Shown: in pieces, positions 12,757 through 58,737 of the stretch | Position numbering within the stretch: position 1 is the first letter of the stretch | Layout: every line of letters starts with the position of its first letter | NCBI GenBank assembly: GCA_963422385.1 | Contig: OY729432.1 | Coordinates: forward strand, 355,376 to 419,375 | From: Candidatus Binatia bacterium | Lineage (GTDB): Bacteria > Desulfobacterota > Binatia > UBA9968 > JAJDTQ01 | Reading direction: 5' to 3' | Length of the DNA: 64,000 nt | The notes under the pieces: model-generated | The model's input: only the letters and a program-made list of their open reading frames with translations | Told to the model about the DNA's origin: nothing | Databases searched by the model: none | Position numbers and translations under genes: made by a program

Positions 12757-13500
12757 TCAACCCTGCAGGATCTGCTCGTCCGTCTTGCCGAATCGCCGCT
12801 GCCGTCGTTGAAATTCCAGCAATGCCTGAAAGTATTCCTGCTCGCCGAAATCGGGCCAGAACTTCGGCGTGAGGTACAGCTCCGTATAGGGTATCTGCCA
12901 CAGAAAGAAGTTGCTGATCCGCATTTCCCCGCCCGTCCGGATCAACAGGTCCGGATCGGGGATGGAGCCGGTTTCCGTGTTCGCCGCGATCATGGACTCG
13001 TCGATCTCTTCGGGCTCGCATTGCCCTGTCTTCACTCTCCGAGCGATCTCCCGAATCGTCTGGACGATGTCGCGGCGACCGCTGTAACTGAGGGCCAGGA
13101 TGACCGTGATGGCGGTGTTGTGGCGCGTGAGGCCGATATTGCGATCCAGGACGCGGCGGACGGAGGGAGGCAGACGTGTCCGATCGCCAATGGCCATGAG
13201 ACGGACGCCTTCGCACATCATGCGGTCCAACTCGCGCTGCAGGAAATTCTCCAGGAGTCCCATCAGTCCCACGACCTCCGTGTGAGGGCGATTCCAATTC
13301 TCGGATGAGAACGTGTACAGCGAAAGATAGCGAATACCGAGATCGCGGCTCATCTCGACCGTGGTTTTGACCGAGTTCATTCCCTCGCGGTGACCTTCGA
13401 GGCGAGTCATGCCCCGAAGCCCGGCCCAGCGTCCATTGCCGTCCATGATGATCGCGACATGGGTGGGCAATCGACTCTTTTCCAGTCCGTGGAGTTCCAT
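12757..13500 (-). CDS. uppS: di-trans,poly-cis-undecaprenyl-diphosphate synthase
   Basis: HVAIIMDGNGRWA...YLSLYTFSSENWNRP...LLIRTGGEMRISNFFLWQ. Confidence 0.95.
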   Translation of the reverse strand: MELHGLEKSRLPTHVAIIMDGNGRWAGLRGMTRLEGHREGMNSVKTTVEMSRDLGIRYLSLYTFSSENWNRPHTEVVGLMGLLENFLQRELDRMMCEGVRLMAIGDRTRLPPSVRRVLDRNIGLTRHNTAITVILALSYSGRRDIVQTIREIARRVKTGQCEPEEIDESMIAANTETGSIPDPDLLIRTGGEMRISNFFLWQIPYTELYLTPKFWPDFGEQEYFQALLEFQRRQRRFGKTDEQILQG

Positions 13501-13573
13501 TCCGGAAAGATTGAAAAGGCAGGTGTTGCCGAAGGACGCGGCGTGGGTGTCCCGTACGGACCGCCGCGGGCAT

Positions 13574-14131
13574 CTAGACCTCCATGATCTCCTCTTCCTT
13601 GGCCCTGAGGAACCCGTCCACCTTGGCGATGAACTCGGCGGTGATCTTCTGGATGCGTTCCTGCCCCTGCTTCACCTCGTCCTCAGTGATCTCCTTACCC
13701 TTCTGCATCTCCTTCAAGCCGTCGATGGCGGAGCGCCGATGGTTTCGTACGGAGACACGATAATCTTCGGCGGTCTTGCGGACCTGCTTCACGAGATCCT
13801 TGCGCCGCTCGCCGCTGAGCTCCGGTATCGGCACCCGGATCAACTTGCCGTCATTGGCCGGCGTGAGGCCTAGGCCGGCCTTCAGGATGGACTTCTCCAT
13901 GCTGGCGATGGCGTTCCGATCGTAGGCCTGGATCGTCACCAGCCGGGGCTCGGGGACCGCGATGGCAGCGATCTGGTTCAACGGCGTCCGAGTGCCGTAA
14001 TAATCCACGGTGACGCCGTCGAAAAGCGAGGCCGAGGCCCGTCCGGTCCGCACGCGTGCCAACTCCCGGCGCATGGCCGTCAAGGTTTTCTCCAACTCTT
14101 CCTGGAAAGCGCTATAGAAGGCGTCGTCCAT
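13574..14131 (-). CDS. frr: ribosome recycling factor
   Basis: LARVRTGRASASLFDGVTVDYYGTRTPLNQIA. Start at ATG 14131 (MDDAFY) gives the canonical spacing of 27 aa before RTGRAS; the track start at 14176 lies within or next to a repeat hairpin. Confidence 0.9.
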   Translation of the reverse strand: MDDAFYSAFQEELEKTLTAMRRELARVRTGRASASLFDGVTVDYYGTRTPLNQIAAIAVPEPRLVTIQAYDRNAIASMEKSILKAGLGLTPANDGKLIRVPIPELSGERRKDLVKQVRKTAEDYRVSVRNHRRSAIDGLKEMQKGKEITEDEVKQGQERIQKITAEFIAKVDGFLRAKEEEIMEV

Positions 14132-45025: not shown

Positions 45026-46150
45026 ATGGCCAAACAAGGATTCAAGGCAATGGATTCCGATATGCATGTCTTCGAGCCTGCCGACCTCTGGGAGCGCTAC
45101 ATCGACCCGGAGTTCAAGGACCGCGCTCCCAAGGGCCTGCAACGCGATTTCCGGGATCTCGGCGTCGAGCTCGACGGCAAGATCCTTCCCGTCCCGAGGC
45201 GGCCGGAAAACCCTGCCTTGAGGGACTACCGGCTGAATACTCTCAAGGAGAAATACAGCGACGTGGCCGAGCGCAACTTCGACGGCGTCAGCCAGGTCAT
45301 GGCCATGGAGAAGGAAGGCCTGGACGTGGCCTTTCTCTTTCCCACCCGCGGACTCTTCGTCCTCGGCATCGACGGCCTCGATCCCGAGTTGGCCGCGGCC
45401 ATCTCCCGGGCCTACAACGATTGGCTCCACGACTTCGCACAGGCCGCGCCCGACCGGATGATCTGCGTCGCCATGGTGCCGCCCCAGAACGTCGAGGCGG
45501 CGGTGGCCGAGACCAGGCGCACGGTGACCGAAAAGGGTTTCCGGGGCATCTTCATGCGCCCCAACCAGACCAACGGGCTATGCTGGAGCGATCCCTACTA
45601 CGATCCCCTGTGGGACGTCTGTCAAAGCCTGGACATCCCGGTGGGCTTCCACGAAGCGGGGCGGGTCTATCAGCCGCAGCCCGCCATCTCGCAGTTCATC
45701 CCGACCTTCTCCATGTTCAACACCCTGAGCTTTCCGATGGCCAACATGTTCGCCTGCTCGGACATGATCTACGGCGGCGTGATGGAGCGCTTCCCCAAGC
45801 TGCGCGTGGCCTTTCTGGAGGGGAACTGCTCCTGGCTGCCCTGGCTCCTGTGGCGCATGGGCGACTACATGGAGTCGGTGGGCAAGGCGGAGTACCCGGA
45901 CCTCAAGCTCGAGCCCCTGGAGTATTTCCAGCGCCAGTGCTTCGGCGCCGTCGAATGCGACGAGATCACCGCCAGGCACATGCCCGAGTACGGCCTGGAG
46001 GACAACCTGGTCTTCTCCACCGACTATCCGCACCTGGACGTCAAGTATCCTCACTCGCTGGATAGTTTCCTGGAGATGCCGTTCTCCGAAGAGTCCAAGC
46101 GGAAGTACCTCTGGGACAACTGCGCCAGGCTGTACAATCTCGGTCAGTAA
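45026..46150 (+). CDS. Amidohydrolase_2 (TIM-barrel metal-dependent hydrolase/decarboxylase) family protein
   Basis: MDSDMHVFEP (metal-binding D/H-x-H), GFHEAG, and the C-terminal VFSTDYPHLD. Confidence 0.8.
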   Translation: MAKQGFKAMDSDMHVFEPADLWERYIDPEFKDRAPKGLQRDFRDLGVELDGKILPVPRRPENPALRDYRLNTLKEKYSDVAERNFDGVSQVMAMEKEGLDVAFLFPTRGLFVLGIDGLDPELAAAISRAYNDWLHDFAQAAPDRMICVAMVPPQNVEAAVAETRRTVTEKGFRGIFMRPNQTNGLCWSDPYYDPLWDVCQSLDIPVGFHEAGRVYQPQPAISQFIPTFSMFNTLSFPMANMFACSDMIYGGVMERFPKLRVAFLEGNCSWLPWLLWRMGDYMESVGKAEYPDLKLEPLEYFQRQCFGAVECDEITARHMPEYGLEDNLVFSTDYPHLDVKYPHSLDSFLEMPFSEESKRKYLWDNCARLYNLGQ

Positions 46151-46163
46151 CAGCCCGGCCTCC

Positions 46164-47306
46164 ATGCGGACTTTCGAGCGGCGGGGGATCGTCGAAGGTT
46201 TCTTCGGTCCCCCGTGGAGCATGGGCCACCGCGCGGCCATGCTCGCGTTCGGCGCGCCGCGCGGCATGAACACCTATCTCTACGCGCCCAAGGACGATCC
46301 CTACCACCGCGAGCGCTGGCAACTGCCCTACCCCGAGCCGGAGTGGCGCGCGCTCTGCCGGCTCATCGACGCCGCGCGCGGGCACGGGATCGACTTCGTC
46401 TACGGCTTTCACCCCGGCAAGGACCTCTGCTTCGCCGCCACGGAACCGGTGCGGATCCTGCTCGACAAGGCCGCCCGGCTTCATGACCGGGGCGTGCGCA
46501 CCTTCGCCGTTCTGTTCGACGACATTCCCTCTCATCTCACGGACGCCGGTGACGTGAAAAAATTCGACGGTAGCCTGGCCAGGGCAGAGTCCCTCTGGCT
46601 CCAGGCCGTGCTGGAACGGCAGCCCGCCGGCTGGGAGGTGGAGTGGTGGTTCTGTCCCTCGTACTACACCGACGATCCGCTGCTGGCCCGGGTCTTCGGC
46701 GAATTCGAGCCGGAGTTCCCGGAGACCGTGGGCCGCCATTTGCCGCCGACCGTGGACTGTTTCTGGACCGGGCCCAAAGTCGTGCCCGAGAGCATCACCT
46801 TGGCCGACGTGGAGGACATCGGAGAACGGATGGGGCACCGGCTGCTCCTGTGGGACAACTATCCGGTCAACGACCTCACCATGCGGGACGAACTGCACAT
46901 CGGGCCCCTGACCGGGCGGGACCCGCGATTGCCGGAGCGCGTCCACGCGCACCTGGCCAACCCGCTGCTGCAGGAGGATCTCAGCTTCATCCCGTTGGCC
47001 ACCTGCTTCGACTACGCCCGTGACCCCGCGGGATACGACCCGGAAAAGAGCTGGGAGGAAATCGTGGTCCGGCGGTTCGGCGCGCCGGCGCTGGAGCATT
47101 GGCGGGCGCTCCGGCGATTTTGTGAAAGCGACGCGGACGCTCCGGCAACAGTATCGGTTCCGGAGCGCGCCGCGCTCCATGCCGCTTGTGACTATCTGCT
47201 GGCTCACCGGAGCGAACGGTGGTGCCGGGAATTCGGGCCATGGCAAGAAAGACTGGAGCAAGCGCTCCGGAAGGAACATGGAAGACAGAACCGTATCCAG
47301 TCGTGA
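46164..47306 (+). CDS. GH84 family beta-N-acetylglucosaminidase (O-GlcNAcase-like) catalytic domain protein
   Basis: GIVEGFFGPPWS...MNTYLYAPKDDPYHRERWQLPYP...IDFVYGFHPG...GVRTFAVLFDDIP...WDNYPVND. It matches the GH84 signature blocks, including the catalytic Asp-Asp pair. Confidence 0.8.
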   Translation: MRTFERRGIVEGFFGPPWSMGHRAAMLAFGAPRGMNTYLYAPKDDPYHRERWQLPYPEPEWRALCRLIDAARGHGIDFVYGFHPGKDLCFAATEPVRILLDKAARLHDRGVRTFAVLFDDIPSHLTDAGDVKKFDGSLARAESLWLQAVLERQPAGWEVEWWFCPSYYTDDPLLARVFGEFEPEFPETVGRHLPPTVDCFWTGPKVVPESITLADVEDIGERMGHRLLLWDNYPVNDLTMRDELHIGPLTGRDPRLPERVHAHLANPLLQEDLSFIPLATCFDYARDPAGYDPEKSWEEIVVRRFGAPALEHWRALRRFCESDADAPATVSVPERAALHAACDYLLAHRSERWCREFGPWQERLEQALRKEHGRQNRIQS

Positions 47307-48606
47307 GGTAATGGCAACGCTGGACGAAGTCCGTTCCAGGACCCTGGGCCTGGTGCAGGATCTTTCCGACGAGCAGCTCACCGTGCCCATGCTGAACATC
47401 GTCAACCCGCCGCTCTGGGAGATCGGGCACATTGCCTGGTTTCACGAGCGATGGGCGCTGCGGCATCTGCGCGGCCACGACCCCATCATCGACAAGGGTG
47501 ACGAAATGTACGACTCCGCCGCCGTGCACCATGACACCCGGTGGGTCCTGGGGTTGCCGCCGCTGGAAGAAACCCTCGCCTACATGGAGCGCGTCCTCCA
47601 GCGCATCGCCGGGGAACTGCCCGCCGGGCGACTGAGCCCGGAAGAGACCTATTTCCACAAGCTGGGCATCTATCACGAGGACATGCACGCGGAGGCCATG
47701 ACCTATACCCGTCAGACCCTCGGTTACCCCCGGCCCCGTTTCGCCGGCGAGAGGACGGCGTTGAACGGAGGACCCTGTCCGGGCGACGTGGAGGTCCCCG
47801 GCGGCGAGTTCCTTCTCGGCGCCACCCCGGACCTCCCCTTTGTCTTCGACAACGAAAAATGGGGCCACCCGGTGATGGTGGCGCCCTACCGTATCGCCCG
47901 CACCCCGGTGACGAATGCCGAGTTCGCCGGGTTCTTGGACGACGGTGGCTACGAGGATCCAAGGTGGTGGAGCGACGACGGCTGGAACTGGCGGCAGACC
48001 GGCGGGGGACCGCATCCCGTGTACTGGAAACGGGAGTCCGGGGGACGGTGGCTGGAACGGACCTTTGGCCAATGGCTGCCGCTTCACGCCGAGCTCCCGA
48101 TCATCCACGTCAACTGGCATGAGGCCGAGGCTTACTGCCGTTGGGCCGGGCGCCGGCTGCCGACGGAGGCCGAATGGGAGATGGCGGCGGCCGTAGATCC
48201 CGCTGACGGCTCGAAGGCCGAGGCTCCCAAGCGCGGCTATCCCTGGGGCGACGCGCCCCCGGACCCCTCCAACGGCAACCTCGACTGGGCCGCGGGCGGC
48301 CGGGTGCCCGTGGACGCGCTTCCGGCGGGCGATAGCGCCGTTGGCTGCCGCCAGATGATCGGCAACATCTGGGAATGGACGGCCGACGCCTTCGGCCCCT
48401 ACCCCGGTTTCGTCCGGGACCCCTACAAGGAGTATTCGGAGCCCTGGTTCGGCGACCGCAAGGTGCTGCGCGGCGGATGCTGGGCCACCCGCTCCCATTT
48501 GATCCGGAACACGTGGCGGAACTTCTTTACGCCGGAGCGGCGGGACGTGCTCGCCGGTTTTCGCACGTGTGACCGGGAATGGACGGCAAGGAAGACCGGC
48601 GCATGA
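47278..48606 (+). CDS. senA: EgtB/SenA-type nonheme-iron C-S/C-Se bond-forming enzyme (DinB_2 plus FGE-sulfatase domains); candidate selenoneine synthase
   Basis: NPPLWEIGHIAWF and YHEDMHAEA form a 3-His iron site. The FGE-like C-domain reads YRIARTPVTNAEF...HVNWHEAEAYCRWAGRRLPTEAEWE...GNIWEWT...VLRGGCWAT. The SenA call rests on adjacency to the SenB-like gene. The start may instead be ATG 47311. Confidence 0.6.
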   Translation: MEDRTVSSREVMATLDEVRSRTLGLVQDLSDEQLTVPMLNIVNPPLWEIGHIAWFHERWALRHLRGHDPIIDKGDEMYDSAAVHHDTRWVLGLPPLEETLAYMERVLQRIAGELPAGRLSPEETYFHKLGIYHEDMHAEAMTYTRQTLGYPRPRFAGERTALNGGPCPGDVEVPGGEFLLGATPDLPFVFDNEKWGHPVMVAPYRIARTPVTNAEFAGFLDDGGYEDPRWWSDDGWNWRQTGGGPHPVYWKRESGGRWLERTFGQWLPLHAELPIIHVNWHEAEAYCRWAGRRLPTEAEWEMAAAVDPADGSKAEAPKRGYPWGDAPPDPSNGNLDWAAGGRVPVDALPAGDSAVGCRQMIGNIWEWTADAFGPYPGFVRDPYKEYSEPWFGDRKVLRGGCWATRSHLIRNTWRNFFTPERRDVLAGFRTCDREWTARKTGA

Positions 48607-48659
48607 GTACACGTACCTGTGAGGCGCGACGCTGGGCAAACGGCGTCCTTCGACCGCGC

Positions 48660-48699
48660 CTCGCTACGCTGCCCCGAGCCCGTCGAGAAGCGTAGCGAG
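48660..48699 (+). other. perfect 11-bp stem hairpin in the senA-senB spacer
   Basis: CTCGCTACGCT-18 nt-AGCGTAGCGAG, with no downstream U-tract. Confidence 0.5.
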
Positions 48700-48721
48700 C
48701 ACAGTTCAGGTCAACGCCGGA

Positions 48722-49714
48722 TTGGAAGAGGCATTGGCACAAGAGAACACCGGAACCGCCAGAATCGCCCTCGTAACCCCGGCCGGCCCCACGCGACGTA
48801 CGGGCAACCGCATCTCGGGAGGCAGGTGGGCGCGAATCCTGCGGGCCTCGGGACATCGGGTCACGGCCCTGGACCGCTACGAGCGCGAGCGCTGCGACCT
48901 GCTGATTGCGCTCCACGCGCGACGCAGCCATCCGTCCATCCAGCGGTTCCGCCGGTTGCACCCCGACAAGCCGCTGGTCGTGGTGTTGACCGGGACCGAC
49001 CTGTACCGCGACATCCACGTGGACGAGGACGCCCGGGAATCCCTGCAACTGGCCACCCGTCTGGTGGTGCTCCAACGCAAGGGCCTGGACGAGCTCGCTC
49101 CCGCGCTACACGAGAAGACACGGGTGATCTACCAGTCCGCATCCCCCTCCCTCGGCCGCCCCGGCGACCGTCACCGGCAATTCACCGTTGCGACGGTGGG
49201 CCACATGCGCTCCGAGAAGGACCCGTTCCGGACCGCCATGGCCGTGCGGTCCTTGCCGTCCTCGTCGCGGCTCCGGGTCGTGCACATCGGCGCGACTTTG
49301 AGCGAGGGCATGGCCACACGCACGGAGCGGGAGATGGAACGCAATCCCCGTTACCGGTGGCTGGGTGAACTTCCCCACTGGAAGACACGGCAACTCATGG
49401 CCCGCAGCCACATCCTTTCCATCACCTCACGCATGGAGGGCAGCTCCAATGTCTTGTGTGAGGCGTTGGCCTCCGGTGTCCCCGTGGCGGCCTCCAGAAT
49501 CTCCGGGTTGGTAGGCACCCTGGGCAACGACTATCCCGGCTACTTCGACCTCGGCGACACCGCCGGGCTCAAGCGTCTCCTGGTCCGGGCCGAGAACGAC
49601 CTGCCGTTCTACGAGAGTCTGGCCCGGCACTGTGCCGAGGTCGCGCCGCTGGTGAACCCTGAACGGGAGGTCCGGGCGTGGGAGGATCTTGTCCGCGAAT
49701 CCATGGGATCATAG
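48722..49714 (+). CDS. senB: SenB-like glycosyltransferase (TIGR04348-type); candidate selenosugar synthase
   Basis: RIALVTPAGPTRRTGNRISGGRWARILRASGHRV...DLLIALHARRSHPSIQRF...LVVVLTGTDLYRDI...LVVLQRKGL...TRVIYQSA...RMEGSSNVLCEALASGVPV. I recognise this as the EgtB-homologue-linked GT family. The start codon is uncertain (TTG 48722 or 48734). Confidence 0.55.
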   Translation: MEEALAQENTGTARIALVTPAGPTRRTGNRISGGRWARILRASGHRVTALDRYERERCDLLIALHARRSHPSIQRFRRLHPDKPLVVVLTGTDLYRDIHVDEDARESLQLATRLVVLQRKGLDELAPALHEKTRVIYQSASPSLGRPGDRHRQFTVATVGHMRSEKDPFRTAMAVRSLPSSSRLRVVHIGATLSEGMATRTEREMERNPRYRWLGELPHWKTRQLMARSHILSITSRMEGSSNVLCEALASGVPVAASRISGLVGTLGNDYPGYFDLGDTAGLKRLLVRAENDLPFYESLARHCAEVAPLVNPEREVRAWEDLVRESMGS

Positions 49715-49738
49715 GACACTACGCTGACACCACACTAG
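49712..49738. repeat. stop-to-stop spacer made of MITE-terminus-like motifs (TAGGACACTACGCTGACACCACACTAG)
   Basis: The TAG at 49712-49714 is the senB stop. The complement of 49735-49737 is the stop of the aminotransferase gene. GACACCACACTAG equals the element terminus. Confidence 0.6.
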
Positions 49739-50886
49739 GTCTCGTCGGAAAGGACCTCGATGAGCTTCTCCGCCACCGTATCCAGCTCCGCGTGACTGAT
49801 GACCAGGGGCGGCAGCAGCCGGACCACCGTCGCTCCCGCGGGTAGCGCCAGGACCCCCTTCTCCATGAGGCGCACGAGGTGGGGCTGGGACTTTTCCTTG
49901 AGCTCGATGCCGATCATCAGGCCGAGTTGACGTATGTCCCTGACCTTGGGCAGTTCCGCCGCCTTCAGACGCTCCATCAGACAGGCACCCTTCTCCGCGG
50001 CGGCCTCGGCCAACCGTTCCTCCATCATGGCGTCGATGGCGGCCAGCGACGCGGCGCACGCCAGCGGGTTGCCGCCGAAGGTGCTGCCGTGCCGGCCCAC
50101 GGGGACCTCGATCCCGTCGGAGCAGACCACCGCGCCCATGGGGATTCCGCCGGCCATGGACTTGGCCAGGCACAGGATATCGGGCTCCAGGCCGAAGTGC
50201 TCGCAGGCGAACATCTTCCCGGTGCGGCAGAAGCCGGTCTGGACCTCGTCGATGATGAGGAGGATCCCCCTCTCCCGGCACAGCTCGCTCACCTGCGCGA
50301 AGAACTCGGCCTTGCCGAGGTTCACGCCGCCTTCGCCCTGGACGATCTCGAGCATGATCGCAGCGGTGTCGTCGCCCACCTTCTCCGCCAGCTTGGCGAA
50401 GTTGTTGAACGGCGCGAACCGGAAGCCCTCTACGACGGGCGCGAAGGGCTCCCGATACTCCCGGGTGAAGGTGGCGCTCAACGCCCCCATGGTGCGGCCG
50501 TGAAAGCCGCGCATGGCGCACACCAGCTCCTGCTTGCCGGTGGTGAAGCGGGCGAACTTGATGGCCGCCTCGATGGTCTCGGCGCCGGAGTTGCACAGGA
50601 ACGCGCGGGTGAGGTTCCCGGGGGTGATGCCGGCCAAACGCTCCAGCAGCCGCGCCTTGACGTCGTTGTAGAAGACCCCGGAGCAACTCAACAAGCGCTG
50701 CGCCTGCTCGGCCACCGCTTGCACCACCTTGGGGTGGCAATGGCCCAGGTTGGCGACGCCGTGGCCGGCCACGCAATCGATGTACTCCCGGCCGGTATCG
50801 TCCCACACCCTGGCGCCCTCGCCGCGCACCAGCACCACGTCGCGCTTGGGATAGACATCGAACTCGTACTGCCGCTGCAGCTTCAT
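49735..50886 (-). CDS. lysJ: acetylornithine / [LysW]-aminoadipate-semialdehyde aminotransferase (ArgD/LysJ family, class III)
   Basis: VWDDTGREYIDCVAGHGVANLGHCHP...LIIDEVQTGFCRTGKMFA...LCLAKSMAGGIPMG. Start at ATG 50886; the 683-aa track ORF is an artefactual extension across lysZ. Confidence 0.85.
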   Translation of the reverse strand: MKLQRQYEFDVYPKRDVVLVRGEGARVWDDTGREYIDCVAGHGVANLGHCHPKVVQAVAEQAQRLLSCSGVFYNDVKARLLERLAGITPGNLTRAFLCNSGAETIEAAIKFARFTTGKQELVCAMRGFHGRTMGALSATFTREYREPFAPVVEGFRFAPFNNFAKLAEKVGDDTAAIMLEIVQGEGGVNLGKAEFFAQVSELCRERGILLIIDEVQTGFCRTGKMFACEHFGLEPDILCLAKSMAGGIPMGAVVCSDGIEVPVGRHGSTFGGNPLACAASLAAIDAMMEERLAEAAAEKGACLMERLKAAELPKVRDIRQLGLMIGIELKEKSQPHLVRLMEKGVLALPAGATVVRLLPPLVISHAELDTVAEKLIEVLSDET

Positions 50887-50894
50887 GAAGTCCG

Positions 50895-51686
50895 TCACCG
50901 AATCACCGTTCCTTTCCCCGCCAGGGCATCGCGGACCGGATGCTCCACCCGGCCGTCGCTCATGACGACCTTTTCCGTGCCTTCCTCGAAGAGCCGTCGC
51001 AGCGCCAGCATCTTGCGCTTCATGCGCCCCTCCACCTCGGCCTCCCGCTGCTCCAACTCGGCGGCGCGGATTCGGGGCACCACCGTGCTCTCGTCGTCCT
51101 TGTCGGCGAGGAAGCCGGGCGCCTCGATGAGCTGCAGCACCAGCTCGGCGTGAAAGGCGGCCTGGAGCACGTTGACGATGTCGTCGTTCTCCGAGTTGAT
51201 GGCGGTGTGGCGCTCGTCGATGATGGGGATGGAGAGCACCGGCGCGTAGCCGCCGTCGAGCAGCAACTGGAACAGCTCCTTGTTGGCCTTCCCGGGCTTG
51301 CCCGAGAAGTCCCGGACGATGAGGGTCTTGCCGTTCTTCCTCACCCGGATGCCCTTGTTGCGCCGTCCCTGGATCGCCCGGCCGTCGATGCCCGAGAGGC
51401 CCACGGCGTTGACGCCGTTCTGTTGCAGCAGCTCCACGATGCGCTTGTTCTGCACGCCCGCGTAGCCCATCAGGATGGCGTCCAGGGCGGCCTTGTCCGA
51501 CAGCACGCTGGTGTAACCCGACACCGATGTGACCACCTGGGTGGGGGTGCCGAGCCTGGCCGCGATGGCGTCGCGCACTGCGTTGGCGCCATGGACCACG
51601 ATGAACGGGTCCGACAGCGCCGCCAGGTCCTCGGCGATACCCGGGAGGTTGATGTCGCTGCCACCGCCGATCTTCACCAGGATCAT
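50895..51686 (-). CDS. lysZ: [LysW]-aminoadipate / acetylglutamate kinase
   Basis: MILVKIGGG...FIVVHGANAV... is the amino acid kinase fold of the ArgB/LysZ type. The ATG overlaps the stop of the upstream gene (ATGA). Confidence 0.8.
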   Translation of the reverse strand: MILVKIGGGSDINLPGIAEDLAALSDPFIVVHGANAVRDAIAARLGTPTQVVTSVSGYTSVLSDKAALDAILMGYAGVQNKRIVELLQQNGVNAVGLSGIDGRAIQGRRNKGIRVRKNGKTLIVRDFSGKPGKANKELFQLLLDGGYAPVLSIPIIDERHTAINSENDDIVNVLQAAFHAELVLQLIEAPGFLADKDDESTVVPRIRAAELEQREAEVEGRMKRKMLALRRLFEEGTEKVVMSDGRVEHPVRDALAGKGTVIR

Positions 51687-52321
51687 CGAAGCCGCTCCAC
51701 CGTGTCGTTGGGAATCGTGCGCCACTCCCCGTGCTCCGGCACGGTCTCGGAACTGACGGTGAACCCGTCGCTGCTCTCCCGGGCACGAAGCCTGAAATAC
51801 GCCGGGTCCTCGTTGAAGACCGACCCGACGTAGACGTTTTCCCTGTCGGCGATGATCATGTTCATGGCTCGCACGTAGCGCGTCCTTCGGACGATGATGT
51901 CCATCCCTTTTCGGATGGCCGCGGCCATGTCGCCCTTGTCGAAGCGCTTGATGTAGTTGAACACCTTCTCCGCGCCGATGCGGCCCTCCGCGGTGACGCG
52001 AACTCCCCGGAGCTCGCCGTTGAAGGCGAACACGTAGCGGTCGTCGGAAAACGGCATGTTGTTCTCCACCACGATGTTCTCATCGCGGAACGCGCTGCGC
52101 GCGTGAGCCACCAGCAGCGTCGTCGCGCCGAACTGTCCCAGGTCGTCTTCCCATACCGGCTTGATGTTCCGGTACACCTTCCACTCACCGTCCACCAGAT
52201 AGGCGCAGCCCCAGCCGTGGCCCTGGTACTCCGGGCTGTTCCGGGCGACGTCGGCCAGATGTGACAAGCGTTGGCCGATATCGAACGGTTGCTGATTCTT
52301 GACGCACAGCAAGCGGCACAT
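51683..52321 (-). CDS. class II glutamine amidotransferase-like Ntn hydrolase (YafJ/EgtC-like), stand-alone
   Basis: 212 aa starting MCRLLCV (Cys2 nucleophile after Met removal), then GHGWGCAY...LVAHARSAF...NNMPF...FAFNGEL. No synthase domain is fused. Confidence 0.7.
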   Translation of the reverse strand: MCRLLCVKNQQPFDIGQRLSHLADVARNSPEYQGHGWGCAYLVDGEWKVYRNIKPVWEDDLGQFGATTLLVAHARSAFRDENIVVENNMPFSDDRYVFAFNGELRGVRVTAEGRIGAEKVFNYIKRFDKGDMAAAIRKGMDIIVRRTRYVRAMNMIIADRENVYVGSVFNEDPAYFRLRARESSDGFTVSSETVPEHGEWRTIPNDTVERLR

Positions 52322-52341
52322 GGCGACGATACCGAAAGGCT

Positions 52342-53394
52342 CTACGCGCCCGGGTGCAGTCCCGGGAATTCGAGGCCCAGGGTCTCCTCGAAGCCGTTCA
52401 TGACGTTGAACGCCTGGACCGCCTGTCCCGAGGCGCCCTTCACGAGATTGTCCAGCGCACTGAGCACCACCAGACGATCGGAGTCCTTCTCCTTCTGGAA
52501 GCCGATGTCGCAGTAGTTGGTGCCGCTGAGCAGCTTGGGCTCGGGAAACCGGTAGATGCCGTCGGCCTCCTTGACGATACGGATGAACGGCTCTTTGCCG
52601 TAGGCCTCGCGGTAGATCTTCCACACGTCCTTCTCTTCCAGCGGCTCGCGCAGGAAGAGGTGGGCGGTGGCCAGCACGCCGCGCACCATCTCGATGGAGG
52701 TGGCGGAAAAATACACACGGATCTGCCGGCCGAAGCCCAGCTCCTGCACGATCTCCGCGCCGTGGCGATGCAAGGTGGGCATGAACGAGCGTACGGCGCC
52801 GCTGCGCTCCGGGTGATGAGAGGCGTCGCTGGCGGCGTTGCCGCCTTCGCTGGAGCCCACCTTGACCTCCACCACCGTGCGGTCCGGGTCCACCAGTCCT
52901 TTCTTGAAGAAGGGATAGACGCCGAGAATCGTCGCGGTGGCGTTGCACCCGGCGCCGGTGACGAAGCTTGCACCTCGTATCTCCTCCCGATGCAACTCGG
53001 GGATGCCGTACACGAAATCCTTCATCAGCTCCGGCCGCGCGTGCGGCTTGCCGTACCAGCGCTGGTACTCGTCCGGATCATCGAGCCGGAAGTCCGCGCT
53101 CAGGTCGATAAGCTTCGGCGCCAGCCCGCGGAGGGACTCGATGCGCTCCATCGCCTGGCCGTGAGGCAGGCAGAGAAAGAGAACGTCGCACGGCTTCAAC
53201 TCCTCCATCCGGCAGAACCGGAGCTGCGTCCGCCTGCGCAGATTGGGATGGGCCTTGAACACGAACTTCCCCGTGTAGCGCTCCGAGGTAACCTCGCACA
53301 ACTCCACCCCGGGATGCCACAGAAGCAGGCGCAGGAGCTCGCCGCCGGTGTAGCCGGACGCCCCCACGATGGAGACCTTCAGCTTCTCGGTCAC
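52342..53394 (-). CDS. lysY: [LysW]-aminoadipate 6-phosphate / N-acetyl-gamma-glutamyl-phosphate reductase
   Basis: VSIVGASGYTGGELLRLL...VTGAGCNATA (active-site Cys)...LVKGASGQAVQAFN. GTG start at 53394. Confidence 0.88.
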   Translation of the reverse strand: MTEKLKVSIVGASGYTGGELLRLLLWHPGVELCEVTSERYTGKFVFKAHPNLRRRTQLRFCRMEELKPCDVLFLCLPHGQAMERIESLRGLAPKLIDLSADFRLDDPDEYQRWYGKPHARPELMKDFVYGIPELHREEIRGASFVTGAGCNATATILGVYPFFKKGLVDPDRTVVEVKVGSSEGGNAASDASHHPERSGAVRSFMPTLHRHGAEIVQELGFGRQIRVYFSATSIEMVRGVLATAHLFLREPLEEKDVWKIYREAYGKEPFIRIVKEADGIYRFPEPKLLSGTNYCDIGFQKEKDSDRLVVLSALDNLVKGASGQAVQAFNVMNGFEETLGLEFPGLHPGA

Positions 53395-53451
53395 GGCTTG
53401 TGCCTCCCCTTCCCGTCCAGGTCGATGATCCGGGTCACGTCCGCCGGCCCC

Positions 53452-54324
53452 TCAGGCCGCACCCTTCCGTTCCCGTTCCGCCCGCCCCACCCGAAGCACA
53501 TGCTCGACGATCAGGCCGGGGATGTTCACCCCGGTGGTGTCGATGCTGTTCCGGAACTCCATGGTGTAGTTCACCTCGTTGACCAGCAGGCCCTCGGGGG
53601 TCTCGAAAAGGTCCACGGCGACGATGCCGCCTCCCACCGCGCGGCACGCCCGGACCGAGAGGTCCCGAAGCTCGTCCGTCACCGGACAGTTCCCGGCGCG
53701 CCCGCCCCGGGCCGTGTTGGTGATCCAGTGGTCGCTGTAACGGTAGATGGCGGCCACGCATTCGTCACCGATGACGAAGCTCCGGATGTCGCGCCCGGTC
53801 TTCTCGACGTATTGCTGAATGTAGAAGATGGAGTGGTGGTAGGAGCCGAGGATCGCCTTGTGCTCCAGGATCGACTCCGCCGCGTCCCGATCGTTGATCC
53901 TGGCGAGGAGCCGGCCCCAGGAGCCCACGGCGGGCTTGAGCACCACGGGATAGCCCATCTCCTCGATGGCCTCCAGGGTGGATTCCTCGGTAAAGGCGAT
54001 GCGCACCTCGGGCTGGGGCACCCCACCATCCTGCAACTGCACCGAGGTGAGGATCTTGTCGCCGCACACGCCTGCCACCGACGACGAGTTGACGCAGCGC
54101 ACGCCGGCGCTTTCGAACAGCCGCAGACCGTGCAGCGCCCGGGAGTGATTGATGCACCGCTCCAGCAGCACGTCCAGGTCGTATCGGTCCTTGCCCAGGT
54201 TGAACGACAATCGCCGGTCGTCGATCATCCGGAGCTCCACGCCGGGCCGTTGCCTGATCTCCTTGATCAGGAGCTTCTCCTCGGGCCGGACCAGTGAATG
54301 CAGCAAACCGATCTTCAAGCTCAT
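53452..54324 (-). CDS. lysX: RimK/LysX-type ATP-grasp ligase (alpha-aminoadipate--LysW ligase)
   Basis: [20 protein letters not shown]...[11 protein letters not shown]...[19 protein letters not shown]. The ATG overlaps the lysW stop (ATGA). Confidence 0.85.
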
Positions 54325-54485
54325 TCTCCCCAGTCTTCCTCTTCCTTGGGCGCCTCGTCCACCGCCGGCGGATCGAGGCTCGTGACCTCCAGCTCGGTGC
54401 CGCAGTCGGCGCAGGCGATCAACTCGCCCTCCACCGCGTCATCTTCAAGCTCCAGCTCTGCTCCACAAACCGGACATTCAACCAT
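54321..54485 (-). CDS. lysW: amino-group carrier protein LysW
   Basis: 54 aa: [34 protein letters not shown]...EEEDWGE. It has a zinc ribbon (CxxC...CxxC) and the acidic C-terminal EDWGE tail. RBS GGAGGT. Confidence 0.85.
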
Positions 54486-54596: not shown

Positions 54597-55985
54597 TTAT
54601 GGCAGTACGGCTTGCGCGACCGTGGTGACGGCGTTCCGCAAGATTGTAACGATGCCGTCGATCTGTTCTTTCGTGACCACCAGCGGCGGACACACGGCCA
54701 GCGCGTGGGCGCCGCACACGCGCAGCAGCAGTCCGTTGGCCAGGCACTCGTCGCAGACCCGCCGGGGCACCTGCTGCTCCGGATCAAAGGACTCCCGGGT
54801 CTCCTTGTCCTTCACCAGCTCCACCGCGGCGATGAGCCCCCGGCCGCGCACCTGACCCACCATGGGCAGGTCCGACAGCGTTGCCAGCCGCTCCTGCATG
54901 TAGGCGCCCAACTCCGCCGCCCGCTCCACCAGATGCTCCCGCTCGATGATGTCGAGGTTGGCCAGCGCCGCGGCGCACACCACCGGATGTCCGGTGTAGG
55001 TGTAGCCGTGGTAGAACGCGTCGTCCGCCTTGGCCAGCAGGGTCTGGAAGATCTCTTCCCGGAACAGCATCGCGCCCAGCGGCAGGTAGCCGCTGGTGAT
55101 GCCCTTGGCGGTGACCAGCACGTCCGGGGTCACGTTCTCGCCGGCGCACGCGAACAGGGCGCCGGTGCGCCCGAACCCCGTGATCACCTCGTCGCAGACC
55201 ATCAGGATACCATACCGGGTACAGATCTCCCGAATCCTGGCCAGCCATCCCTCGGGCGGCACGATGACCCCGCCAACGCCCTGGACGGGCTCGGCCACGA
55301 AGGCCGCGACGGCGTCCGGACCTTCCCGTTCCACCAGCTGCTCCAGCTCGTCGGCGCAGGCGATGTTGCAGCTCGGCCAGGTCTTCCCCAGCTCGCAACG
55401 ATAGCAGTGAGGCCGCGCCATGTGGTGCACGTCCGGCAGACCCGGCTCCATCTGCCGGTTGAACAGCGGTATCCCCGTCAGCATGGCCGCCCCGCTGGAA
55501 GAGCCGTGATAGCCCTGGTTCAGGGTGACGAACCGGGTCCGTTGCGGCTGCCCCCTGGCTTTCCAATAAGCCCGCACCAAGCGGATCATGCTCTCGTTGG
55601 TCTCGGAACCGCCGGAGGTGAACACCACGCGGGTCAGCCCTTCCGGGGACATCTCCGCGAGCCGGGACGCCAGCCGGATGGTGGGTTCGGCCGTGGGCCC
55701 GATGAGCGTGGGCGCGTAGGCGAGCCGGTCCATCTGCTCCGCCACCGCACGGGTGATCTCCTTCCGCCCGTGGCCGACGTGGACGTTCCAGAGAGTGGAG
55801 AGGCCGTCGATGTAGCGCTTGCCCAGGGAGTCCCAGAGGTAGACCCCCTCGGCCCGGACGAACACCGGCACGCCGTCCGCCTGATGCTTTGTCAACGGCA
55901 CGAAGCCGTGGACGAGATGGTCCCGGTCGGCGCGGCTCATGGCCGCGGCGCGCTCGAGATCCACGGGGTCGGAAGGGTTCGTCAT
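54597..55985 (-). CDS. class III (omega-type) aminotransferase
   Basis: LWNVHVGHGRKEI...GGSETNE...MVCDEVITGFGRTGALFA...VTAKGITSGYLPLGA. Start at ATG 55985 (MTNPSDP). Confidence 0.85.
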   Translation of the reverse strand: MTNPSDPVDLERAAAMSRADRDHLVHGFVPLTKHQADGVPVFVRAEGVYLWDSLGKRYIDGLSTLWNVHVGHGRKEITRAVAEQMDRLAYAPTLIGPTAEPTIRLASRLAEMSPEGLTRVVFTSGGSETNESMIRLVRAYWKARGQPQRTRFVTLNQGYHGSSSGAAMLTGIPLFNRQMEPGLPDVHHMARPHCYRCELGKTWPSCNIACADELEQLVEREGPDAVAAFVAEPVQGVGGVIVPPEGWLARIREICTRYGILMVCDEVITGFGRTGALFACAGENVTPDVLVTAKGITSGYLPLGAMLFREEIFQTLLAKADDAFYHGYTYTGHPVVCAAALANLDIIEREHLVERAAELGAYMQERLATLSDLPMVGQVRGRGLIAAVELVKDKETRESFDPEQQVPRRVCDECLANGLLLRVCGAHALAVCPPLVVTKEQIDGIVTILRNAVTTVAQAVLP

Positions 55986-56052
55986 GGGTTCCGGCGAGTG
56001 TCCGCGGCAGGGCCTCGGGGCCCTTGGCCCTGCCGTGTCCGTCGTCTTGGGC

Positions 56053-57084
56053 TTACAGCCCGTAATAGCGCCTGGGGTTATCGCACAGGATCTTCCTGCG
56101 CAGCTCGGGGTTGAGGTCCTCCCGGGCAAAAAAGTCCGGCAGATCGTGGAAGAACTCCGAGCGCGCCCGCTCGTGGGGGTAGTCGGAGGCCCACAGCACC
56201 TGATCCCCGCCCAGACGTTCCAGCACGTAGGGCAGGCTCTTCTCGTCCACCTCGCAGGTGAAGAAAATGTTGCCGCCACGGATGATGTCGCTGGGGCGCT
56301 GCTTGACCGCCAGCGCGTGGCCGCGCCGCTCCCAGTTCTCGTCCAGCGCGTCCATCATGAACGGCACCCAGCCGGTGCCGCACTCCAGATAGGCCACCCG
56401 AAGGTTGGGAAAACGGTCGAACACGCCGCTGTTGATCATGCTCATGATCTGTACCATCTGCGGCATGGCGTGCTCCAGCGGTCGCGCCTCGGCCAGACTC
56501 TCGAACATGTCCAGGCCCAGGCCCGTTACCGGACCGCCGTGAACCGCCAACGGGCAATCCAACCGTTCCGCCTCCGCGTAGAGCGGGTCGAACTGGCCGC
56601 CGCCCAGGCCCACCAGCGGCGCCATCACCGACGGGATCACGCCGGCCACCATGCCCTGCTCCTCCACGCACCGGCGCAACTCCTGGACCGCGGCGTCGAT
56701 GTCCTGCACCGGCAGCAGCGCCACGCCCTTGAGGCGGTCCGACTGGCGCCCGAAAGAGTCGTAAAGCCAGTCGTTGTACGCCTGAGCCACGGCCACCGCC
56801 CAGCCCTTGTTCCTGATCTGGCCGTGAAACAGCGCGTTGCTGGGATAGAGGATCGTCTGGTCGATCTTCGAGTCGTCGAGGAAGCTCAGCCAGTTGGCCG
56901 CGTCCGGGACCTCGGCCTTGTGGCGGGACGACATGCCGCGCATCCAGCCGTCAGTGAGGGGAAAGAGATAATACTCACGGGTCCAGTCCTTGTCGGACCA
57001 GGGCGCGGGCAGATACCGACGCAGGTCCTTGTCCTGGTCCACCACGTGGCCGTCCGCGTCAATAATCTCGTGTTCATGTTCCAT
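56053..57084 (-). CDS. Amidohydrolase_2 family protein (paralogue of 45026-46150)
   Basis: IIDADGHVV (metal site)...LAVHGG...LWASDYPHE. ATG 57084 is preceded by GGAGG. Confidence 0.8.
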   Translation of the reverse strand: MEHEHEIIDADGHVVDQDKDLRRYLPAPWSDKDWTREYYLFPLTDGWMRGMSSRHKAEVPDAANWLSFLDDSKIDQTILYPSNALFHGQIRNKGWAVAVAQAYNDWLYDSFGRQSDRLKGVALLPVQDIDAAVQELRRCVEEQGMVAGVIPSVMAPLVGLGGGQFDPLYAEAERLDCPLAVHGGPVTGLGLDMFESLAEARPLEHAMPQMVQIMSMINSGVFDRFPNLRVAYLECGTGWVPFMMDALDENWERRGHALAVKQRPSDIIRGGNIFFTCEVDEKSLPYVLERLGGDQVLWASDYPHERARSEFFHDLPDFFAREDLNPELRRKILCDNPRRYYGL

Positions 57085-57136
57085 GGAAACCTCCAACGTC
57101 CGGAAATCCGATACGCGCACGCGAGGGGCCCGCTCG

Positions 57137-58606
57137 TCAGCGTATCATCAGCCGGCCGGATTCGCCCGAATAGTTGATAAAGACGGTCTTGAGCTCGGTA
57201 AAGAAATTGACGCCCTCCTCGGACATTTCCCGCTCCCCTACCCCGGTGGCCTTGATGCCGCCGAAGGGAAGCTGGGCCTCACCGCCGATGGTGGGCTCGT
57301 TCACGTGGACCATGCCCGTCTCCACGTCCTCCACGAAGCGCATCACCTTGTCCACGTCCCGGGTGAAGATGGACGTGGTGAGGCCGAAGTCCACCGAGTT
57401 GGCGAACCGGATGGCTTCGTCCAGGTCCGAGGCCGCAGCCACCGACAGCACCGGGCCGAAGATCTCCTCGCGAAAGATGCGCATGTCCGGTGTGACGTTG
57501 TCGAACACCGTGGGCTCGACGTAATACCCGTGTTCCAGCCCCGCGGGCTGGTTCCCGCCCACCACCAGGCGGGCGCCCTCCTGCTTGCCCACTTCGATGT
57601 ACTCCAGGTCGGTCTTCCACTGGCTCTCGTCCACCGCCGGCCCCATGTCCACGTCCCGGTCGAGGCCCGGGCCCACGCGCATCTTTCGGGCGTGTTCCTC
57701 CAGCCTGGCCACCAGCTCGTCCTTCGTGGAGCCGATGGCGATGACCCGGGAGGTGGCGGTGCAGCGCTGGCCGGTGGAGCCGAAGGCGCCGTCCCGTATG
57801 GCCACGGCCGCCTTCTCGAGGTCGCAGTCGGGCATCACGATGACCGCGTTCTTGCCGCCCATCTCGCAGGTCACCTTGGCGCCCCGGGAGGCGGCCTTGA
57901 CGTAGAGGTCGCTGCCGATCTCGTTGGACCCGGTAAACGAGACCACCGGGATCCGTGCGGACCTGACCATGGTTTCGCCGACCTCGGACCCGGAGCCGAC
58001 GATGACGTTGAAGACGCCCTTGGGAAGACCGGCTTCCTCGTATACTTCCGCCAGGAGACCCGCAGTAGCCGGGGTCAGGGACGCCGGCTTGAGCAGTACC
58101 GCGTTGCCGGCCACCAGCGCCGGCGCGGACTTCCACACCGGGATCGCCCAGGGAAAGTTCCACGGCGCGATCAGCCCCACCACGCCCATGGGCTGCCGGA
58201 TGGTGTAGGTGAAAGTGTCCCGGGCCTCGGACGGAAGAGTCTTGCCGCCGAGCCGGTAGCCGGCGCCGGCGTTGTACTCCAGGAGCGAGATCCCCTTGAG
58301 CACCTCGCCCCGCGCCTCCTTGAAGATCTTCCCTTCTTCGCGCGTCATGACCTCGGCGATCTCGTCCACACGACGGCGCGCGATGTCCGCGGCGCGCCAG
58401 ATCACCCGACCGCGCTCCGGCCCCGGCGTCTTCCTCCATCCCTGGAAGGCGGCCGCGGCCGCATCGATGGCCCGCTCCGTGTCCGCGCCCGTGGCCATGG
58501 GAAACTCGGCGATGACGTCGCGGGTGTCCGCGGGATTGACGTTGCGTACCTGCCGGCCGGAGCTCGGCTGGACCCACTCCCCGTTGATATACGAACCGGT
58601 CTGCAT
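57137..58606 (-). CDS. NAD(P)-dependent aldehyde dehydrogenase
   Basis: SFTGSNEIG...[13 protein letters not shown] (catalytic Glu)...GQRCTATSR (catalytic Cys). ATG 58606 is preceded by AAGGAG. Confidence 0.9.
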
Positions 58607-58651
58607 GGGTGTCTCCTTGGAGCTGGTATCGTGGGTCGCCAATGGATCGGG

Positions 58652-58678
58652 CAGGGGCGGGCTTGAAACCCGCCCCTG
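58652..58678. repeat. REP-like GC hairpin (CAGGGGCGGG-CTTGAAA-CCCGCCCCTG)
   Basis: 10-bp perfect stem located in the divergent aldH/rnhA intergenic region. Confidence 0.7.
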
Positions 58679-58737
58679 CACCTTGTCGTCGCACCCGGGA
58701 GCCTGTCCGACGGCAAGCATTCCCGCACCGCTTCATG

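Follow-up and report, generated by a model that had tools for sequence, protein, structure and literature searches.

We analyzed a 64,000-nucleotide stretch of a Candidatus Binatia genome (assembly GCA_963422385.1, contig OY729432.1, positions 355,376 to 419,375; hereafter the window), which belongs to a complete 3.95-Mb chromosome whose closest relatives are Candidatus Binatia metagenome-assembled genomes (MAGs). On its minus strand, six genes follow one another head to tail as lysW-lysX-lysY-Ntn-lysZ-lysJ (positions 49735–54485; Table 1), where Ntn stands for a gene encoding an N-terminal-nucleophile (Ntn) amidohydrolase with a cysteine directly behind its initiator methionine. The remaining five genes encode the amino-group carrier protein LysW and enzymes of the LysW pathway, a route to lysine or ornithine whose last step is regarded as dependent on the metal enzyme LysK. 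Our comparative analysis suggests that the Ntn gene probably encodes a cysteine amidohydrolase that does the job of LysK in this pathway.

Table 1 The lysW operon of the window, with window positions, and loci of other genomes referred to in the text
Feature	Location	Strand	Description
Ntn gene (this study)	51683..52321	−	212-aa Cys-Ntn amidohydrolase, predicted class II amidotransferase fold, EgtC-like
lysW	54321..54485	−	54-aa amino-group carrier protein; TIGR01206, 68.7 bits (cut-off 53.2); PF21344
lysX	53452..54324	−	ATP-grasp ligase; TIGR02144 (LysX), 350.6 bits (cut-off 275.6)
lysY	52342..53394	−	[LysW]-aminoadipyl/glutamyl-phosphate reductase, ArgC family; TIGR01850, 391.4 bits (cut-off 233.6)
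lysZ	50895..51686	−	[LysW]-aminoadipate/glutamate kinase; NF010659, 248.6 bits (cut-off 223)
lysJ	49735..50886	−	[LysW]-semialdehyde aminotransferase, class III; TIGR00707, 433 bits (cut-off 410)
lysW ending in EDWGQ	L050, L053, L071, L072, L083, L085, L090, L093, L098		
Divergent Ntn member	L120		X-Y-Ntn-Z-J
Divergent Ntn member	L121		W-X-Y-hcs-Z-J-Ntn, then class I lysyl-tRNA synthetase
Divergent Ntn member	L122		hcs-Ntn
Divergent Ntn member	L123		Z-Ntn

A stand-alone amidohydrolase gene within a LysW operon

All five pathway proteins (LysW, LysX, LysZ, an ArgC-type LysY and an ArgD-type LysJ) score over the cut-offs of their models; on the LysJ_Th_th model, LysJ reaches 463.8 bits, under the cut-off of 700. 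LysW combines a zinc ribbon with an acidic tail and ends in EEEDWGE. Its identity to 3wwl and 5k2m, two solved LysW structures, is 50–60%, and all three share the EDWGE end; it is the γ-carboxyl of this C-terminal glutamate onto which LysX loads the substrate. The lysW stop and the lysX start overlap in a shared ATGA. Such an ATGA is also found at the end of the Ntn gene: the plus strand at 51679–51690 reads ...caggatcatcga..., and on the minus strand the lysZ ATG (51686–51684) overlaps the Ntn TGA (51685–51683) by 4 nt. The Ntn protein (MCRLLCVKNQQPFD...VERLR) is 212 aa long and begins with MCRLLCVKNQQ; a longer GTG-start open reading frame from the mechanical list (51683–52948) runs into lysY and is not the gene. 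Translation, fold and strand reading confirm what a sequence-only reading of the window had described, namely a 212-aa Met-Cys protein of the class II amidotransferase fold between lysY and lysZ whose stop overlaps the lysZ start. The same reading had stated that the operon lacks an M20 deacylase of the LysK/ArgE type, and we likewise found no M20 gene within 49735–54485.

At the level of sequence, the protein is only loosely connected to known families. It scores a borderline 24.1 bits on the Pfam model GATase_4 (PF13230; cut-off 23), and the NCBIfam EgtC model (TIGR03442) matches residues 36–116 only, with 43.3 bits against a cut-off of 218.65; the Rosettibacter orthologue likewise stays under this cut-off (45.4 bits). 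An AlphaFold model built with 30 homologues (predicted local distance difference test score, pLDDT, 94.5) displays the four-layer α-β-β-α Ntn fold. Its best Foldseek matches in the PDB are the EgtC structures 4zfl/4zfj (template modeling score, TM, 0.82; E 6e-13; 18–19% identity), with further matches to 3mdn, 1te5 and the amidotransferase domains of PurF and GlmS, all of them, EgtC included, at a probability of 1.00. The assignment to the class II amidotransferases, although weak by sequence, is thus firm by predicted fold. Profile searches with PF01546 and the LysK model TIGR01902 gave no match to the Ntn protein, which would be a functional analogue of LysK rather than a homologue.

At 90% identity, the family to which the protein belongs falls into ~3,000 clusters, and at 50% identity into 380, nearly all members being 205–230 aa long. 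At least 519 species genomes carry a member, and the family has no named model in Pfam or NCBIfam. Apparent Ntn-LysZ and LysY-Ntn fusions (P0183, P0220) turned out to be frameshifted gene calls.

Operon association and absence of LysK

The Ntn gene lies within a lysW-type operon in 84 of 84 loci examined, which come from more than ten phyla. This sample covers Binatia, Ignavibacteria/Melioribacter (with the isolates Rosettibacter primus and Melioribacter sp.), Calditrichia, Rhodothermaceae, other Bacteroidota, Gemmatimonadota, Planctomycetota, KSB1, Arenicellales, Woeseiaceae, Acidiferrobacteraceae and DPANN archaea. The full lysW-X-Y-Ntn-Z-J order is present in 57 loci, and contig ends cut most of the others. 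A 4-nt overlap between Ntn stop and lysZ start was counted in 37 loci, with overlapping or abutting genes in most others, an arrangement suggestive of translational coupling between the two. Family members of 25–33% identity are still found in lysW operons, albeit in other gene orders (L120–L123; Table 1). As the association with lysW outlasts both sequence divergence and rearrangement, we argue for a shared function.

This association extends to whole genomes. When 401 evenly drawn Bacteroidota genomes were scanned for LysX (over cut-off) and for the Ntn family (E ≤ 1e-73), LysX was found in 16 of them and the Ntn family in exactly those 16, with no occurrence in the other 385 (Fisher p = 6e-29). 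Where both genes are on one contig (15 of the 16 genomes), they are ~2 kb apart.

We then asked for LysK by means of TIGR01902 (cut-off 163.1 bits), which the controls Thermus, Deinococcus, Haloferax and Sulfolobus all exceed. On the complete Binatia chromosome, no protein passes this cut-off (best 51.5 bits), and the M20 paralogues encoded there reach at most 81.9 bits on NF003367, the [LysW]-lysine hydrolase model (cut-off 363). The same holds for TIGR01902 in 28 other Ntn-carrying genomes (0 over cut-off, best 100.9 bits) and in the 16 Bacteroidota carriers (0 over cut-off, best 93.2 bits). In six of the 28, including the complete chromosome of the archaeon GW2011_AR15 and the isolate Rosettibacter primus, TIGR01902 yields no match at all at E ≤ 1e-5. 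LysK and the Ntn family therefore seem mutually exclusive (LysK over cut-off in 0 of 45 carrier genomes, and no Ntn gene in the LysK-type operon of Marinithermus). Both the genome search for lysK and the co-occurrence of the Ntn family with lysW operons lacking it, which had been suggested as checks together with the original observation, speak for a replacement.

The operon of Marinithermus hydrothermalis represents the LysK type. Its order is hcs-lysT-lysU-lysW'-lysW-lysX-lysY-lysZ-lysJ-orf-M20 (hcs, homocitrate synthase gene), with lysZ directly after lysY, and its LysW, X, Y, Z and J proteins are 44–55% identical to those of the window (LysX 55%, LysY 54%, LysJ 53%). Used as a query, the Marinithermus M20 LysK homologue retrieves only M20 paralogues of 22–29% identity from the Binatia genome and finds no match in the 84 loci.

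Several further loci deserve mention. While the M20 gene ends the Marinithermus operon, the Ntn gene occupies that end in L121 (6001–8979), with a gene for class I lysyl-tRNA synthetase directly behind it. At L150:8696–9171 and 13065–13631, Marinithermus carries tandem LysW-like genes (101 aa and 56 aa) and a 188-aa hydrophobic open reading frame without a Pfam match, the latter between lysJ and the M20 lysK. In locus L082 (genome G013), which has the order lysW-hcs-lysX-Ntn-lysZ-lysJ, we detected no lysY between lysX and Ntn; the gene may be located elsewhere or have diverged beyond detection. A set of 301 small DPANN-type genomes (phylum of G022) was dropped as a LysK-type contrast in favor of Deinococcota LysW proteins and the Marinithermus operon, as it offered only sub-threshold M20 genes. 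The four of these genes with recognizable neighbors (L137–L140; LysK-like, 107–130 bits) belong to argC-argD-argB clusters that have neither lysW nor lysX, and these clusters look like acetyl-type ornithine clusters of small archaeal genomes.

Catalytic residues and carrier termini

Residue conservation was counted over 206 full-length family members. Cys2, the nucleophile whose loss in orthologues the sequence-only reading had named as speaking against its proposal, is kept in 195 of the 197 members with an aligned N-terminus. Arg75 is present in 206 of 206 members, Asn101-Gly102 in 205 and Gly116 in 204. In a MAFFT alignment, Cys2, Arg75 and Asn101-Gly102 coincide with the nucleophile, the HxR arginine and the NG of 1TE5 and of GlmS, PurF and AsnB from the same genome. 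In PurF and GlmS, these are the N-terminal nucleophile, the arginine that binds the α-carboxylate and the Asn-Gly oxyanion hole, while the aspartate of an S/TDTE motif binds the free α-amino group of glutamine.

This aspartate (S/TD[ST]E) is absent from the Ntn family. Gly116 corresponds to the Asp of GETDSE in 1TE5 by automatic alignment, and to the Asp of S/TDTE in GlmS, PurF and AsnB by our reading of motif and secondary structure. MAFFT itself set the S/TDTE motif of these three proteins against a non-conserved KGD, so the equivalence of Gly116 is backed by the 1TE5 alignment and by a helix predicted from residue 116; a profile comparison of the family alignment with the GlmS amidotransferase domain of the same genome gave no usable alignment. 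In place of GETDSE, the family has the motif G-R-I-G-A-E-K, in which the Asp is gone and Arg114 and Lys119 are gained. Together with Arg3, these are family-specific basic residues (1TE5 has Glu, Glu and Ala at the positions of Arg3, Arg114 and Lys119). The active site thus appears to be altered in the way that a protein-bound C-terminal glutamate would need. Retention of Arg75 fits the free α-carboxylate of the LysW C-terminal Glu, and the exchange of the Asp for a small Gly116 fits a glutamate whose α-nitrogen is in peptide linkage to the Gly of LysW.

The carriers encoded by these operons come with two different ends. Among 67 LysW C-termini read from operons, 57 are EDWGE and 10 are EDWGQ (nine of these in Table 1), the latter in Melioribacteraceae, Ignavibacteria, Arenicellales, Acidiferrobacteraceae, other Gammaproteobacteria, a delta-proteobacterial MAG and a DPANN archaeon. 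On the Ntn tree, parsimony counts six changes between the Glu and Gln labels (of which well-supported branches force only two), the Gln labels cluster no more tightly than shuffled labels, and sister pairs differ (L093 Gln and L091 Glu; L098 Gln and L092 Glu). No Gln end occurs in the 120 best Thermus-type LysW clusters (Fisher p = 2e-5 versus 10 of 67, for one LysK-type lineage and without phylogenetic correction), and all three solved LysW proteins end in Glu. Since LysX requires a γ-carboxylate, Gln-ended LysW must first be deamidated. Proteins of the class II amidotransferase fold have glutamine deamidation as their ancestral reaction.

Proposed release reaction, alternatives and implications

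Based on the paradigm of class II amidotransferases and EgtC, we propose the following mechanism. Cys2 would be exposed by methionine aminopeptidase, and its thiol would attack the isopeptide bond that links the γ-carboxyl of the LysW C-terminal Glu to the α-amino group of the product, with Asn101-Gly102 serving as the oxyanion hole. Arg75 would hold the free α-carboxylate of the terminal Glu, and Gly116, in place of the α-amino-binding Asp, would give room for the LysW chain (-Trp-Gly-). This step would free lysine in operons with a homocitrate synthase, and ornithine or lysine in the Binatia genome. The LysW γ-thioester would then be hydrolyzed by water, regenerating LysW, and the same chemistry could convert Gln-ended LysW into its active Glu form.

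Several known enzymes resemble the Ntn protein in part. LysK (M20, ArgE/DapE family; TIGR01902, NF003367; Thermus, Sulfolobus, Thermococcus) acts at the step proposed here, in the same pathway and likewise from within the operon; it is, however, a di-metal hydrolase of unrelated fold without sequence similarity to the cysteine enzyme. EgtC (4zfj/4zfk/4zfl) is the best structural match and also a stand-alone domain of ~220 aa with an N-terminal Cys. It hydrolyzes a γ-glutamyl amide, that of γ-glutamyl-hercynylcysteine sulfoxide in ergothioneine biosynthesis, and passes on no ammonia (PMC9103826). Apart from the low identity, it differs in its partners (egtABDE instead of lysWXYZJ), in acting on a small molecule where the Ntn enzyme would act on a protein C-terminus, and with respect to the Gly116, Arg3 and Lys119 that are invariant in the Ntn family. 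YafJ-type GATase_4 proteins (PF13230; 1te5, 3mdn; function unknown) share the MC, GWG, HxR, NxxP and NG motifs and the fold, whereas the Ntn family has a shorter loop from NG to the next helix besides the altered GETDSE motif. The ornithine acetyltransferase ArgJ, finally, is an Ntn enzyme that strips an amino-protecting group at the last step of a homologous pathway, but it belongs to another Ntn fold family (DmpA/OAT), is self-processing, uses a Thr nucleophile and transfers instead of hydrolyzing.

The main alternative to hydrolase chemistry is a γ-glutamyl transferase. Here, the amino group of the next α-aminoadipate or glutamate would resolve the LysW γ-thioester, so that the carrier is reloaded without ATP and LysX is needed for priming only. 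Operon association, co-occurrence and active site support such a transferase just as they support a hydrolase, ArgJ sets an established precedent by recycling the acetyl group in the sister pathway, and Gln-ended LysW would be a ready acyl donor for the first round. However, LysX is kept in every Ntn-family genome (16 of 16) with no sign of a relaxed role, and hydrolysis, not transfer, is what EgtC and the domains of class II amidotransferases catalyze; sequence data do not separate transfer from hydrolysis, and we regard the transferase as unlikely. An extended version, in which the Ntn enzyme first activates an inert Gln-ended pro-carrier and then transpeptidates the LysW γ-thioester to the next substrate, with no LysX ATP spent after priming, appears similarly doubtful to us. 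Quite unlikely, too, is a role in carrier servicing only, where the enzyme would deamidate Gln-ended LysW or remove wrong amino acids and an unrelated hydrolase from elsewhere in the genome, be it an M20 paralogue or some other enzyme, would release the product. Ten LysW proteins do end in Gln and need deamidation, and ArgE/DapE-type M20 paralogues exist in the Binatia genome and in many others. Yet the 57 carriers ending in Glu need no maturation and the Ntn gene is always kept, six carrier genomes are without any LysK-like M20 match, and none of the 84 loci contains an M20 gene; a second conserved gene was not noticed in the annotated flanks either, which were not systematically searched for one.

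The sequence-only reading had offered a further possibility, that of a true EgtC serving an EgtB-like enzyme encoded 3 kb away. More generally, the protein could be an EgtC/YafJ-type amidase for a small γ-glutamyl compound, for example from the nearby ergothioneine/selenoneine locus, with an incidental placement in the lysW operon. EgtC is indeed the nearest solved structure, and the EgtB-family gene is there (47020–48606), but its product scores as SenA selenoneine synthase (518 bits, cut-off 420), and the gene adjoins SenB (396 bits, cut-off 300). The SenA/SenB pathway uses a selenosugar, not γ-glutamylcysteine. The neighbor of the Ntn gene is accordingly SenA and not an EgtB using γ-glutamylcysteine (EgtA was not searched for). 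Moreover, the Ntn protein falls far short of the EgtC model, the Asp for the free α-amino group is lost, and the gene follows lysW through 84 loci of many phyla, whereas sen genes accompany it in the close Binatia clade alone and the link to lysW holds where none were seen beside the operon. We therefore find no support for a true EgtC and consider an incidental amidase of this kind very improbable. Hardly more credible is a glutaminase subunit that provides one of the other operon enzymes with ammonia. The class II amidotransferase fold and the N-terminal Cys would suit it, but there is neither a synthase domain nor an ammonia-using partner (LysJ is a transaminase), and the residue that binds the α-amino group of glutamine is Gly in 204 of 206 members. 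PurF is the only other GATase_4 protein in the Binatia genome.

The operon is flanked on both sides by further gene strings. On the plus strand, 45026–49714 encodes an Amidohydrolase_2 protein, a GH84 N-acetylglucosaminidase, SenA and SenB, which we read as a putative selenoneine locus with an extra glycosidase. Directly upstream of lysW and on the same strand (54597–58720, minus) are genes for an aldehyde dehydrogenase, an Amidohydrolase_2 protein and an omega-aminotransferase; the aldehyde dehydrogenase is nearest to α-ketoglutaric semialdehyde dehydrogenase (563 bits, under cut-off). This upstream arrangement is kept in 20 of 20 close Binatia loci and absent from the loci of other phyla examined.

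Which amino acid is released may differ between lineages. A short homocitrate-synthase-like gene (~385 aa, 320–430 bits on TIGR02146) is located in or beside the operon in 27 of 84 loci, as in Rosettibacter primus with its order lysW-hcs-lysX-lysY-Ntn-lysZ-lysJ. Rosettibacter and its Melioribacter relatives have no LysA but do have ArgJ and ArgB, so in these organisms the operon is the lysine pathway. Of the two LeuA-family genes in the Binatia genome, one scores as LeuA (769 bits) and the other as CimA (752 bits), leaving no homocitrate synthase. This genome has canonical arginine (acetyl) and diaminopimelate (DAP)-lysine routes besides the LysW operon: a nine-gene string argB-argD-argF-argG-argH-lysA-dapF-dapA-dapB at C1:2387640–2397776, with a type-2 argC (C1:3309047–3310003) and argJ (C1:916189–917358; ArgJ 420 bits) outside of it. 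Candidates for the Binatia product are ornithine from glutamate, lysine via aminoadipate from another source, or something else. The uncertainty over the product does not affect the proposed release chemistry.

Every comparative test that we ran supports a γ-glutamyl amidase of the Ntn fold in place of LysK, as had been suggested from the sequence, and we hold this to be the probable function. A number of points weigh against it. The tests behind it are comparative throughout, and among the RNA runs searched for operon transcripts, none contained the operon. About ten other M20 paralogues in the Binatia genome could in principle release the product, and the operon is not obviously needed there, given the DAP-lysine and arginine routes and the lack of a homocitrate synthase. 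The Gly116 argument draws on sequence alignment with 1TE5, GlmS, PurF and AsnB and on predicted secondary structure. With isoelectric points from 4.8 to 11.2 (median 7.8), the family is not uniformly basic, and on these grounds we rejected the idea that the family as a whole simply matches the acidic LysW by charge; only the local basic substitutions near the catalytic motifs stand out. The Gln-tail comparison, lastly, takes its LysK-type carriers from Deinococcota only.

In full-text searches, to which most subscription journals were out of reach, we found no literature linking the Ntn family to the LysW pathway. The genome paper of Caldithrix abyssi describes a LysWXZYJ-plus-Hcs locus of eight genes, for which the authors suspected non-orthologous displacement (PMC5317091). 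Measured against the literature, the Ntn family would probably be a new family of enzymes performing an already known step of a known pathway.

If our interpretation is correct, the LysW pathway, which seems incomplete in at least 519 species genomes of many phyla, would be complete in these organisms, among them Ignavibacteria, Calditrichia, Binatia, marine Gammaproteobacteria and small-genome archaea, and predictions of their amino-acid auxotrophies would change. It would also constitute a non-orthologous replacement in core metabolism, the enzyme being a hydrolase directed at the side chain of the last residue of a protein, and the Gln-ended LysW proteins would be genetically capped pro-carriers.

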